Assembly: GCA_951406725.2 (NCBI GenBank) | Contig: OX597816.1 | Coordinates: 21,328,001-21,392,000, forward strand | DNA from: Octopus vulgaris | Taxonomy: Eukaryota | Length of the DNA stretch: 64,000 nucleotides | Reading direction: 5' to 3' | Shown: in pieces, positions 1,278-50,739 of the stretch | Numbering within the stretch: the first letter of the stretch is position 1 | How the letters are laid out: each line of letters opens with the position of its first letter | Program-made: the position numbers and the translations under genes | The notes under the pieces: generated by a model | Told to the model about the DNA's origin: nothing | The model's database searches: none | Seen by the model: only the letters and a program-made list of their open reading frames with translations

Positions 1278-1589
1278 TACATACACACACACATATATAT
1301 ATATGTCTATAAACACTCACACACACACACACATATTTCTATAAATAGAGAGACAGAAAGACTGAGAGAGAGAAAGAGATTTGTTGATGTGTTCCAGCTG
1401 ATCCAATCAACAGAACAGCATACTTGTGAAATTAATGTGCAATTAGCTGAGCACTCCACAGACACATGGCTCGAGAAAGAACAAACAATATATATATATA
1501 CATATATATATATATATATATATATATATATATATATATATATATATATATATATACGAGCGAGAAAGAAGCAACAAGAATGGATAGGT

Positions 1590-1680
1590 TTTTAGTACAA
1601 TCGTTTCATACAAGGACAGGCTTTATTAAAAGTTGCAAAAATTACAGCATATAAACGTGTCCCGTACTCATCAGCTAAAA
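1590..1680 (-). ncRNA. Type I minimal hammerhead ribozyme (inverted copy)
   Basis: Exact reverse complement of the 2203-2293 motif. Confidence 0.8.
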
Positions 1681-2202
1681 TACATGTGAGTTCTCTAGAC
1701 ATCCTAGTGGTTGAGGCTATACTCATGAAGTAATGTAGATAATTAAGTAACATAAACAGATTTCCAAAGTTCATTAAAGTTCTTTAAAGATGATGTACAG
1801 TCTTATCACAGAATTTTAAAAAAAGTTTTAATAGCATCACAGAGAAGGTGACCTAATCCATAGTGCACATATGAATTTCCAGAGATATGAGGAGGGATTA
1901 CATACTCACAGACGACAAATTTATCCATTGTTAATCACAATTGTTGTGATTAACAATGGATAAATTTGTCGTCTGTGAGTATGTAATCCCTCCTCATATC
2001 TCTGGAAATTCATATGTGCACTATGGATTAGGTCACCTTCTCTGTGATGGTATTAAAACTTTTTTAAAATTCTGTGATAAGACTGTACATCATCTTTAAA
2101 GAACTTTAATGAACTTTGGAAATCTGTTTATGTTACTTAATTATCTACATTACTTCATGAGTATAGCCTCAACCACTAGGATGTCTAGAGAACTCACATG
2201 TA

Positions 2203-2293
2203 TTTTAGCTGATGAGTACGGGACACGTTTATATGCTGTAATTTTTGCAACTTTTAATAAAGCCTGTCCTTGTATGAAACGATTGTACTAAAA
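2203..2293 (+). ncRNA. Type I minimal hammerhead ribozyme
   Basis: Stem I TTTTAG/CTAAAA; CTGATGA at 2209; stem II GTACGGGACA/TGTCCTTGTAT; GAAAC-gatt-GTA; predicted cleavage after A2287. Confidence 0.8.
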
Positions 2294-2482
2294 ACCTATC
2301 CATTCTTGTTGCTTCTTTCTCGCTTATAATCACCCCACATTACTGTATTGTTAAAACAGTATAGTTTTTTTTGGTGCATCTAAGTTAGGTACCATATTCA
2401 AGTAAATTCATTTAAATTAACTTGAATCTTTATTGCTTTTTGAATATATATATATATATATATATATATATATATATATATA

Positions 2483-2828
2483 TTTATTTATTTATTTTTT
2501 ATTTATTTTGACATGTATCACTGACGAAGAGAGGGCTCTTAGAGGCTAACTCTGAAATAGGTCCGATATGGTAATAATGGAATTTTTTTTAGAAATTTCT
2601 GTCGACTTTTTTTCGAGTAGCGTGCATATTGTGAAAAAATTATATGGTTAATTGACAATATGTCCAATTTTTCGGCATATTTGGCATTAGAAATTTTTTT
2701 CCTTTGCCCTCATTTATGAATTGTTTATAAATTTAAGCATTAAAGGTATTTTTTAATATGCTGGCCATTGATAAAATTTTTTTCGAGAAAATATTTTTTT
2801 TCGAAAGAAATTTTATCCTCACATTTGA
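2483..2828 (+). mobile_element. Second hammerhead-bearing element between (TA)n tracts
   Basis: Hammerhead near the 5' end; TGCTGGCCATT plus hairpin 2770-2817 at the 3' end; (TA)n on both sides. Confidence 0.65.
2514..2570 (+). ncRNA. Minimal hammerhead ribozyme, slightly decayed
   Basis: TGTATC(a)-CTGACGA-AGAG...CTCT-GAAAT-ag-GTC-(c)GATATG; one A.C mismatch at the base of stem I. Confidence 0.65.
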
Positions 2829-3214
2829 TATATATATATATATATATATATATATATATATATATATATATATATATATATATATATTATATATATATAT
2901 ATATAATATATATATACATATATATATATATATATATATATATATATATATATATATATATATATACATATATATATATACATATATATTCTTGAAATGA
3001 GGAGTAGATAGACGGCTGACAACTGATGAAGGGTTGTTCTTTATGTTACTTTTCTTGTTTTCCATTTTTTTCTCTCATAGTTTGTATATTGAACTCATTT
3101 GCTTTCGTATTTCATGATGTTTACTGTTCAGTGACATCTTGTACCCATATATGCACGTGTTTATATATATCTATATGCACATATATATATATTATTTATA
3201 TATCTGTATATTGT

Positions 3215-47819: not shown

Positions 47820-48000
47820 ATATCTATTATATAAAATTCATTCTGTCTGTTTGTATGTGTCTTTTTTCAAGGATCCAATTGTGCTCAAATTTGATATGTA
47901 GATACCAATGGTATCAGGGCATGTATAAGTCTTGAAAAAAATCCCAAAACTCGATTCCAGGTGAGAACGCAATCAATAAAGCCGTGGGAACGTGCATTTG
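47820..48000 (+). mobile_element. Possible Helitron-like non-autonomous fragment
   Basis: atctattatataaaa start, then ctgtctgtttgtatgtgtc and aaatttgatatgtagata; the 3' end is not seen. Confidence 0.35.
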
Positions 48001-48340
48001 TAAAATTGTTTTTCTTAGAATTGAAAAAAAGTCTATCGTTATTTCGTCTTAGCTGTTTCAGCTTTTACTTGTAGCTGAGCAGTTGCAAAGAGACGATCTT
48101 CTTTGTGAATCTTCTCTGGATTGCTTCGAGGTCCATTGTTAATTTCACACACACGCACGCACACACACACACACACACACACACACACACACACACACAC
48201 ACACACACACACACACACACACACACATATATATATATATATATATAAAATATTATTAGAGACAAAACCACTATTTTGCAAAACAAACAAGGAAAGACTT
48301 AATCAATACATAAAATTTTAATAAATAGTCAAAAAAACCG

Positions 48341-48383
48341 CCACTACAATTGTTTCTTGCCTTGATCGACAATCTTCAGGTGG
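48341..48383 (-). ncRNA. Type I minimal hammerhead ribozyme
   Basis: CCAC-CTGAAGA-TTGTC-gatcaa-GGCAA-GAAAC-aatt-GTA-GTGG. Confidence 0.85.
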
Positions 48384-50430
48384 ACTTCCAATCTAAAATA
48401 TCAATATTTTAAAATATAAAAATAATAATTTTAAAATAATTAAAGTATGAATGAAAAAATATAAATATATAATCCATATATAACCTATATATAATCCATA
48501 TATAATCAATATATAAACAATATATAAACTAAAATAAACCTATCAACAATTAAATATAAAATATAAAATATAAAATATAAAATATAAAACAAAACAAAAA
48601 ATAATAATAATATAATAATAAACTATATATACACCCATACACATATAACTAATTATATATAACCATATCTAACTACATACACTAAATCACACACCTATAT
48701 ATATATCCCTATACATACACATAAAAACGTCTAGGCAACTATAAATAAATAAAATAGCTAAATACTTCAACACAATACTTATTCATACTCCCACACACAC
48801 ACATACAACCCACATTCACGCTCTAGAAAACGGACATCACTTAAAATTATGAACGGAGAAATGGAATAAATGGAATTAAAAATTATATTCACTTGGTAAA
48901 ACGAACACTACTTAAAAATTATGAATGAAACAATGCAATAAAACAACAGACATCGCAAATAGACACAAATTACTACGAATTCCTTAACAAACCTACCATG
49001 ATAAACCAAAACTCATAAAAACATATAATGATAAAATCTCCCTTTACTAAACTCTATAACATACCTATATAGCAATCCCCCTATCCTAAACATTCACACA
49101 CAAATACACACACGTAAACCACACACCCACGACATATACAAATACCCACACCACTTACACATACCTATGCATACATATAAACCTCAACATATACTCCAAA
49201 AACCCACTCAACCCCACACAGACAAATAAACACAAAAATTATGAATGGATTCTTTTATAAAACTACCATGATAAGCTAAAACTCACAAAAACATAAATGA
49301 TAAAACCTCCCTTTACTAAACACTATAACATACTTATATAGCAATCCCTTTGACCTATACATTCACACACAAATACACACACGTAAACCACACACCCATA
49401 ACAAATACAAACACCCACCCCACTCACACACACCCACAAGTACATATAAGCCCCAACATATACACCAAACAAAATTACTTTACCAAGGAACTTAACATAT
49501 GTATAAAAAGTATAACCGCGCTGGAAACGAACATCTTTTAAAATAATGAATGGAGAAATGGAATAAATGGAATTAAAAATAATATTCACGTGGCAAAACG
49601 AACACCACTCAAAAATTATGAATGAAACAATGTAATAAATTGAGGTTTATATGTATGTATAGGTATGTGTAAGTGGTGTGGGTATTTGTATATGTCGTGG
49701 GTGTGTGGTTTACGTGTGTGTATTTGTGTGTGAATGTTTAGGTTAGGGGGATTGCTATATAGGTATGTTATAGAGTTTAGTAAAGGGAGATTTTATCATT
49801 ATATGTTTTTATGAGTTTTGGTTTATCATGGTAGGTTTGTTAAGGAATTCGTAGTAATTTGTGTCTATTTGCGATGTCTGTTGTTTTATTGCATTGTTTC
49901 ATTCATAATTTTTAAGTAGTGTTCGTTTTACCAAGTGAATATAATTTTTAATTCCATTTATTCCATTTCTCCGTTCATAATTTTAAGTGGTGTCCGTTTT
50001 CTAGAGCGTGAATGTGGGTTGTATGTGTGTGTGTGGGAGTATGAATAAGTATTGTGTTGAAGTATTTAGCTATTTTATTTATTTATAGTTGCCTAGACGT
50101 TTTTATGTGTATGTATAGGGATATATATATAGGTGTGTGATTTAGTGTATGTAGTTAGATATGGTTATATATAATTAGTTATATGTGTATGGGTGTATAT
50201 ATAGTTTATTATTATATTATTATTATTTTTTTGTTTTGTTTTATATTTTATATTTTATATTTAATTGTTGATAGGTTTATTTTAGTTTATATATTGTTTA
50301 TATATTGATTATATATGGATTATATATAGGTTATATATGGATTATATATTTATATTTTTTCATTCATACTTTAATTATTTTAAAATTATTATTTTTATAT
50401 TTTAAAATATTGATATTTTAGATTGGAAGT

Positions 50431-50473
50431 CCACCTGAAGATTGTCGATCAAGACAAGAAACAATTGTAGTGG
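50431..50473 (+). ncRNA. Type I minimal hammerhead ribozyme
   Basis: CCAC-CTGAAGA-TTGTC-gatcaa-GACAA-GAAAC-aatt-GTA-GTGG; all three stems are Watson-Crick; predicted cleavage after A50469. Confidence 0.88.
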
Positions 50474-50739
50474 CGGTTTTTTTGACTATTTATTAAAATT
50501 TTATGTATTGATTAAGTCTTTCCTTGTTTGTTTTGCAAAATAGTGGTTTTGTCTCTAATAATATTTTATAATATTTTACTATAAAATTGGATTTAATCCT
50601 AAATCTGATTTTTTTCCCTGTAAATTTGGATTTATTCCCTAATATTTATTATTTATATATATATATATATATATATATCCATAGTTTTTGTGTGTGGCAA
50701 ATGCTCAGGGGCAATAAACATTGAAAATGTGCAGAAAAC

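Follow-up and report, generated by a model that had tools for sequence, protein, structure and literature searches.

A 64,000-nucleotide stretch of the Octopus vulgaris genome (contig OX597816.1, positions 21,328,001-21,392,000, from an assembly of 2.8 Gb in 227 contigs), hereafter the window, carries hammerhead ribozyme motifs in ten families of dispersed, multi-copy repeats. These elements are very probably the 3' ends of insertions of Penelope-like elements (PLEs): families A, E, F, G and J would be truncated members of the Hydra clade, and families B, H and I non-coding units likely moved by an enzyme of the same kind. Each family ends at two fixed sites, and fold-back copies nearly always join one short and one long end. 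The initial annotation of this DNA, made from the letters alone, had proposed non-autonomous or 5'-truncated PLE-type elements targeting TA repeats; the clade, the two-ended tail rule and the tRNA-like head of family D are additions to it.

The hammerhead motifs in the window, whose GC content is 34% and in which microsatellites are dense, are real. The motif is found, intact or decayed, at all 15 sites first listed (by their left-most letters), and the families are labelled here by its core: A (1674-/2209+), B (2521+), C (12040+), D (16184+, 44581-), E (17413-/17606+), F (18207-), G (31616-), H (39882+), I (40677-/40869+) and J (48379-/50435+). Forty-two CUGANGA cores occur in the window, seven of which (both cores of A and of J, those of B and C, and 40869+ of I) pass a strict type I descriptor that demands a helix I of at least 4 bp, a helix II junction of at least 3 bp, a helix II domain of at most 100 nt, the first helix III pair and UH. 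Chance does not match them: 0.02-0.04 strict sites were expected from three sets of 100 dinucleotide shuffles, with a maximum of one, and all six decoy cores gave none. An earlier descriptor limiting helix II to 30 nt recovered four sites only, and an Rfam scan of the window returned no hammerhead among the 150 of 303 matches listed, nearly all of which were microRNA models on microsatellites and hairpins. The eight remaining listed sites fail the strict scan as window copies, the motif there having decayed; in the copies fetched from the genome the core is kept in 19/20 (A), 28/30 (B), 17/30 (C), 25/30 (D), 25/30 (E), 26/30 (F), 19/30 (G), 23/30 (H), 18/30 (I) and 27/30 (J).

None of the families is single-copy. 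First-look candidates, which are not copy numbers, ranged from 713 (I) to 3,038 (H), with 1,336 for A, 2,364 for B, 1,752 for C, 2,473 for D, 1,566 for E, 1,212 for F, 918 for G and 1,109 for J; for each family the best 40 were scored and the best 20-30 loci fetched with 1.5-kb flanks. Among the best-scored candidates, copies of A and J are 99-100% identical to the window (about 100% for the best 40 of A) and are therefore young, whereas those of C, at about 80% identity, are old. The families had been thought to lack mutual similarity, which does not hold for A-E (z 7.7), F-J (8.2), H-I (5.7) and A-I (4.8), as measured against 100 shuffles; they are not all unrelated. The six inverted duplications reported initially were all seen, in A, E, F, H, I and J, and a 17-nt arm was found in addition on the D copy near 44780.

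Helix III carries a distinct palindrome in each family (CGATCG, CAGCTG, CACGTG, CAATTG, CCGG, CCAATTGG and TCGGTCCGA, with CGATTG and G-U pairs in A). Its predicted energy is -7.8 to -15.9 kcal/mol as a self-dimer and 0 to -1.9 kcal/mol as a hairpin, and this strong preference for dimer over within-copy pairing fits the dimer model described for Penelope pseudo-long terminal repeats (pseudo-LTRs; PMC4209133). The fetched sequence, 1.77 Mb biased towards these families, holds at least 24 hammerhead clusters with 113 distinct strict motifs, whose helix II domains span 11-93 nt and often 55-93 nt; such long domains are likely to escape standard descriptors. In 77 of these 113 motifs helix III is perfectly palindromic, where about 10% would be so by chance, and by our own reading of the cluster table this applies to 14 of 24 clusters. 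We note that at least 15 of the clusters lie beyond the window families (L398:3057 and other fetched loci), one of them bridging A and E.

One line of evidence for a Penelope origin is the coding sequences to which five of the families lead. Followed in the 5' direction in the fetched loci, A, E, F, G and J each reach a frame for reverse transcriptase (RT), GIY-YIG endonuclease (EN) or both; on sequence grounds they are 5'-truncated, one of the two options in the initial annotation, and are ends of Hydra-clade PLEs coded elsewhere in the genome. A full-length A in locus L022 consists of a pseudo-LTR with hammerhead at 4736-5229 (core 4989), a stop-free open reading frame (ORF) of 984 aa, stop to stop, at 5196-8147, a 3' untranslated region (UTR) of about 1.5 kb and a second hammerhead at 9639. 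A full-length J extends across the adjacent stretches L273 and L274, with an uninterrupted ORF of 841 aa, stop to stop, and hammerheads at L273 8736 and L274 5046, the second 3.5 kb downstream of the ORF. Both thus carry a canonical hammerhead in direct pseudo-LTRs on either side of a single ORF, in units of 4.65 kb (A) and 6.3 kb (J) with stop codon-to-ribozyme spacers of 1.5 and 3.5 kb. The predicted proteins combine RT with a GIY-YIG motif near the C-terminus and have no N-terminal EN; A has the motifs IRWKT and ADKT, J the variant IKWKA and SDKT, and both carry the CxCx5C linker, CxxC before the conserved E, CxH after the conserved N, and Asn-rich inserts (16-17% N). Neither has, as judged by eye, the Cx2-5CxxC (CCHH) motif, whereas a Neptune-type control of 781 aa, taken from this genome, has ADKG and Cx2-5CxxC and none of the Hydra motifs of A and J. 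Pfam matches on pieces of A were weak and below the cut-off (RVT_1, E 7e-4; GIY-YIG, E 2e-3); the whole A protein matched no family, neither RT nor EN was matched by pieces of J, and an atlas search returned unnamed eukaryotic RT-like clusters only. In run X15, whose type is unrecorded and probably DNA, summed contig depth rises from about 7,000-8,000 at the start of the A ORF to about 700,000 at the 3' end, some 90-fold. Contigs guessed to be RNA cover 26-30 of 30 bins of A, although contigs cannot show transcription, ends or circles.

Several further features of these elements were encountered. Family A is found in runs under four organism labels and is thus common to several labelled organisms. 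A near-full-length J (L279:2725-2812) has its 5' end at approximately the short-end site, the tail alone preceding the ORF. The CA-rich J 3' UTR (L273/L274) contains a Cys/His-rich frame of 230-240 codons open on both strands, probably a low-complexity artefact. The 781-aa Neptune-type Penelope ORF is present in many intact copies (L420-L425 and others); in L422 it is followed, about 1.5 kb further on, by a hammerhead-like core of its own.

The other coding families were tied to their enzymes through individual long copies. E joins a Hydra RT (66% to A) and EN in L370, bracketed by E's own inverted 3' copy; F joins J-like RT/EN pieces in L373 and L375 (EN 62-77% to J), likewise bracketed by an inverted 3' copy of F; and G has an EN (44-45% to A) 2.1-2.8 kb upstream in the colinear L281 and L282. 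Family C extends at least 1.4 kb upstream without a tandem period, has RT fragments upstream in L384, L385 and L387, and is likely another decayed coding family. EN matches beside single E, I and C loci (L061, L226 and L057) were discarded as neighbouring insertions, the shared sequence stopping before them. The window contains no intact Penelope ORF, in agreement with the initial annotation, but the claim that no RT or GIY-YIG ORF is visible there overlooked a decayed N-terminal fragment of a Hydra-type ORF at 43181-43342 on the minus strand (tblastn, 42% over 55 aa, E 1.8e-5).

Another line of evidence is the structure of the ends. Each family has two fixed 3' ends, at distances from the predicted cut (short/long) of 37/156 nt in A, 100/187 in J, 38/127 in E, 178/250 in F, 167/261 in B, 44/117 in G and 178/271 in H. 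The initial estimate of 125-270 nt between ribozyme and 3' terminus agrees with the long ends (117-271 nt), not with the short ones (37-178 nt). The gap between the two end sites, which we term the tail, is about 69-115 nt, and both sites are AT/TA-rich and upstream of the start codon. TA follows 35 of the 36 unique ends of A and 41 of the 43 of J, as expected of elements targeting TA repeats, a rule to which D is an exception (see below), and in run X15 the contigs have loose TA ends at each of the two A end sites. Where head-to-head pairs abut a microsatellite at each end, 53 could be classified and 50 of these combine a short with a long end (p 5.5e-12 against 0.5), six more having an unclassified end; the non-coding families follow the same rule (B 4/4, H 6/7).

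This near-obligate pairing excludes a simple duplication at the DNA level and suggests that a single insertion event makes use of both starts. A plausible mechanism would have the enzyme nick a (TA)n tract on each strand and prime two cDNAs at the two fixed internal pseudo-LTR sites, 69-115 nt apart; pairing of these sites with the nicked target is plausible because both are AT/TA-rich. The two cDNAs would stop early and then be joined head to head. The hammerheads would cleave as dimers in tandem transcripts to give unit-length RNA, their cleavage probably not being needed for insertion itself. We regard as evenly poised the broader proposition that the octopus harbours a whole Penelope ecosystem, in which enlarged and recently active Hydra elements, retrozyme-like units and a Penelope-mobilised short interspersed element (SINE) with a tRNA promoter all insert by obligate twin priming, a dimeric enzyme making one cDNA per fixed RNA site on opposite target strands.

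Families B, H and I consist of short tandem units without coding sequence, in keeping with the non-autonomous elements initially proposed, and from their sequences they are likely moved by a Penelope-type enzyme. Upstream of each ribozyme lies the family's own downstream sequence, and natural dimers in L137, L111 and L210 contain two whole ribozymes 503 (B), 534 (H) and 446 (I) nt apart. The tandem period recurs in 12/30 loci of B (about 504 nt), 11/30 of H (about 530 nt) and 20/30 of I (about 446 nt), and in 0/20 of A, 0/30 of C and 0/30 of F. The units are AT-rich, carry a type I hammerhead each and end in TA with the same two-end, fold-back signature as the coding Hydra families. A search among GIY-YIG loci for a partner of B, H, I or D yielded mostly the 781-aa Neptune-type family, which has another 3' end, and none that fitted. 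For A and J, the mobilising partner that the initial annotation expected elsewhere is a full-length copy of the same element.

Family D is of another kind, a dispersed monomer consisting of a tRNA-like head, an internal AAT tract, a minimal hammerhead and a Penelope tail of 33-35 nt. The head motif is present in 15 of 30 fetched loci, and the headed copies have an A box at +8 (10/12) and a B box at +52 to +56 (11/12), in tRNA register and with a fixed 5' start. ARAGORN found no tRNA at default settings in 20 loci and one in 4 of 30 at a relaxed score; an Rfam scan of the head gave no tRNA match. The lack of T4 terminators was rejected as a signal, since 43-68% of shuffles are without them too, as chance alone would give. 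D ends are flanked by TA in only 4 of 58 cases, the AAT tract being internal and not the target. There are two fixed internal 3' ends 33-35 nt apart, no A-tail, and an inverted arm in 18 of 30 loci; 17 of 20 fold-back pairs, in a table read by eye, join a short and a long end. We consider D likely to be a separate passenger of RNA polymerase III (Pol III) type that would be mobilised by a Penelope enzyme not targeting TA.

A number of observations weigh against the reading of these families as Penelope insertions with active ribozymes. The Hydra placement of A and J is by motifs and by-eye comparison with printed references, and E, F and G each rest on one or two long, broken or partial copies. 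The RT fragments near the three C copies share no DNA similarity with one another, and EN was not found there. Hammerhead activity is a prediction: the run data consisted of contigs, in which neither cleavage nor RNA ends or circles were seen, and no run containing A is recorded as RNA. The minimum-energy fold of the monomer shows the three-way junction in B, C, H and partly I, not in A, E, F and J. The count of palindromic helices III is raised by relatedness among the copies and, to a small extent, by the way the scanner scores. B, H, I and D could be linked to no coding partner. 5' ends lie within 5 nt of the upstream cleavage site in only 2 of 27 B and 0 of 33 H copies; they do not cluster there, and a genomic footprint of self-cleavage is not supported.

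Other explanations must be weighed against these data. B, H and I may be classical retrozymes, copied from self-ligated circular RNA by rolling-circle reverse transcription independently of Penelope priming sites. Their unit size and tandem type I hammerheads resemble those of non-LTR retrozymes (PMC7229834), and some copies run through a second ribozyme, as a circle would allow; however, an uncut tandem transcript explains read-through equally well, most copies reach less than one unit upstream, and the three families stop at two set internal positions within TA tracts and pair short with long ends, as the coding Hydra families do. We therefore hold this explanation to be somewhat unlikely, noting that it is only partly exclusive, a circle possibly still serving as template for a Penelope enzyme. 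Alternatively, all families could be autonomous Hydra elements, the tandems of B, H and I having arisen by local duplication or being repeats within a long 3' UTR. Internal 3' UTR repeats do occur in J, E and F (with a 268-nt period in 26 of 30 J loci), and our reading covered the best 30 loci per family with 1.5-kb flanks; yet the repeat of B, H and I holds the hammerhead and both ends, as the natural dimers illustrate, and no upstream sequence outside the tandem was seen to be shared between copies in the fetched loci, which makes this account distinctly improbable.

Two further alternatives concern the fold-backs and family D. That the fold-backs formed only once the element was in place, through repair of DNA hairpins or through template switching at (TA)n cruciforms, and not by double priming, might be suggested by the abundance of (TA)n tracts and other perfect hairpins in the window; but duplication of DNA would repeat one end, whereas nearly all classifiable pairs have two different, family-specific ends, and D keeps the rule without TA flanks. 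We give this explanation scarcely any credence. As to D, an ordinary tRNA SINE mobilised by a long interspersed element (LINE), with a chance, decayed hammerhead-like stretch, would be in line with the absence of the NUH triplet from 18 of 30 fetched copies (the query itself being a short form), with the failure to find an enzyme partner among 30 GIY-YIG loci and six longer stretches, and with the scant ARAGORN support and uninformative T4 runs. Against it stand the two closely spaced ends, the short and long pairs, the inverted arms and the missing A-tail, all Penelope signatures, together with the regular placement of the A and B boxes, and we judge it improbable. The interpretation of D as a passenger of a Penelope enzyme, if true, would extend SINE biology to a Penelope partner.

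The core element is of a known kind, and one octopus member has already been described. Hydra-clade elements are characterized by Craig et al. (2021, PMC8557442) by a C-terminal GIY-YIG, RWK, DKT, CxCx5C, CxxC..E and CxH motifs, insertion at (TA)n and canonical hammerheads. A and J resemble them in the C-terminal GIY-YIG, the RWK/DKT/CxCx5C motifs, the (TA)n target, the type I hammerhead and the inverted 5'-truncated copy, and their RT follows the printed Hydra-1_Obim, by eye, motif by motif. That element (2,507 bp) is the one octopus Hydra member in the supplement of PMC8557442, compared with at least five Hydra-type families here. A and J also differ in scale: listed Hydra families measure 1,080-3,045 bp ("generally short", a descriptive rather than diagnostic term) against 4.65 and 6.3 kb, and tails of 30-40 nt (PMC8557442) contrast with tails of 69-115 nt; the A and J proteins have Asn-rich inserts besides. 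The helix II stems of 3-7 bp with loops of 3-10 nt listed for Hydra elements in that paper contrast with domains of up to 93 nt among the motifs of the fetched sequence. The octopus hammerheads further share with Penelope pseudo-LTR hammerheads (Cervera and de la Pena 2014, PMC4209133) a short palindromic helix III and predicted activity as dimers, as well as inverted pairs 100-700 bp apart and many single truncated copies, although 7-8 bp is there the larger end for helix II, as against the 55-93-nt domains frequent here.

The one-ended tail was noted qualitatively in PMC8557442, where the origin of tandem, inverted and tailed PLE insertions is stated as open. The short-and-long pairing rule constrains sharply, from genomic data, how PLEs insert, a question partly answered in vitro with the Anolis Poseidon element PAc (Frangieh et al. 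2024, PMC11167929), for which two internal RT start sites equal to the tail are reported. As in our proposal, both target strands are cut and extended in that system, a dimer is predicted and ribozyme cleavage is dispensable in vitro. PAc starts lie 111-118 nt inside the ORF and are reported to lack homology to the target, with no strand difference; the octopus end sites, in contrast, are upstream of the start codon, TA-like and used one per arm. With intact, near-identical coding copies and a defined target, A and J render the insertion model directly testable.

B, H and I resemble non-LTR retrozymes (Cervera and de la Pena 2020, PMC7229834; Li et al. 2026, 10.64898/2026.07.22.740005), for which a Penelope origin has been proposed: both are AT-rich, lack coding sequence and consist of tandem units a few hundred bases long that carry a type I hammerhead. 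The three families provide copy-level evidence for the proposed Penelope mobilisation of retrozymes. They are unlike retrozymes in being dispersed partial tandems with a TA target, two ends and fold-backs, and are known here from genomic copies; the words 'octopus', 'microsatellite' and 'inverted' each occur 0 times in the main text of PMC7229834. D recalls the schistosome elements Sm-alpha and Sj-alpha, in which a tRNA-derived Pol III promoter is followed by a hammerhead (PMC6765202, PMC2770079). Those are described as tandem repeats that cleavage sets free, however, whereas D occurs as dispersed monomers that combine a minimal hammerhead and an internal AAT tract with fold-back arms and a tail of Penelope type. 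Thirty-one recently active Penelope-like families are given in a 2026 repeat annotation of octopus, whose main text has neither the term 'Hydra' nor 'ribozyme'. In the literature searched, whose scope excluded Repbase, most subscription papers and other supplements, no octopus hammerhead families, enlarged Hydra elements or Penelope-mobilised tRNA SINE were found. As far as that search extends, 4.65-6.3-kb units with very long 3' UTRs, helix II domains of up to 93 nt, B, H and I with a Hydra insertion signature, the tRNA-headed D and the short-and-long pairing rule go beyond what is in print.

Within the window, the coding families are represented as follows. The inverted arm of A at 1559-1940 (minus strand; predicted cut at 1596) ends at the short 3' end beside a (TA)n tract at 1488-1556 and is 98% identical to the full-length copy in L022; it faces the arm at 1944-2443 (plus), which has the long 3' end with tail, a predicted cut after 2287, a helix II domain of 60 nt and the helix III insert CGATTG. 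E comprises a long-end arm at 17204-17536 (minus; helix III CGATCG) and a short-end arm at 17540-17730 (plus). F, nearby, has a long-end arm at 17865-18272 (minus; helix II domain 76 nt, helix III CACGTG) and an inverted short-end arm without ribozyme at 18273-18400 (plus). G, at 31487-31807 (minus), terminates at its short end. J shows a short-end arm at 48244-49639 (minus), consisting of 3' UTR only, with helix III CAATTG and 98% identity to the full-length copy in L273/L274, followed by a long-end arm at 49640-50655 (plus; predicted cut after 50469). The old 3' end of C occupies 11582-12333 (plus; helix III CAGCTG).

As to the non-coding families, B is present at 2498-2828 (plus) as a 5'-truncated 503-nt unit whose long end runs into (TA)n. 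H has a long-end inverted arm at 39508-39668 (minus) and most of one 534-nt unit at 39669-40114 (plus), its short end entering (TA)n. I comprises one whole 446-nt unit at 40415-40860 (minus), with the decayed core near 40677, and an inverted arm in two parts, 40862-41098 (plus; intact core 40869, helix III CCGG) and 42387-42490 (plus), which ends about 80 nt beyond the other arm, in (TA)n. A mariner-like transposon with transposase-like frames, at approximately 41099-42386, is inserted at a TA and splits this arm; unit positions 46-279 and 277-391 are contiguous across it. D is represented by a headless copy at 16051-16318 (plus), with an AAT/AAC tract, decayed minimal hammerhead and tail, and by a copy at 44488-44781 (minus) with the tRNA-like head (about 44700-44779), AAT tract, minimal hammerhead with a GUU site and, directly upstream, the 17-nt inverted arm.

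Other repeats of the window deserve brief mention. Two related TA-associated repeats at 12460-12760 (minus) and 2990-3150 (plus), matched in 11 and 10 fetched loci, carry GAAAC upstream of a CUGA(A/U)GA core and are possibly a further Penelope-type end or the remnant of a permuted ribozyme. A near-perfect 164-nt hairpin at 39346-39509 adjoins family H and has GAAACG beside its loop; no further copy was present in the fetched loci except those overlapping the window. A direct duplication of about 450 nt, its copies 1 kb apart at 60780-61240 and 61790-62240, has a CUGAUGA core in each copy without a hammerhead fold. Finally, a fold-back resembling a miniature inverted-repeat transposable element, with long terminal inverted repeats beside TA tracts and without a hammerhead, is found at 29560-29800, 42570-42870 and 58601-58711 and is matched by ten fetched loci.

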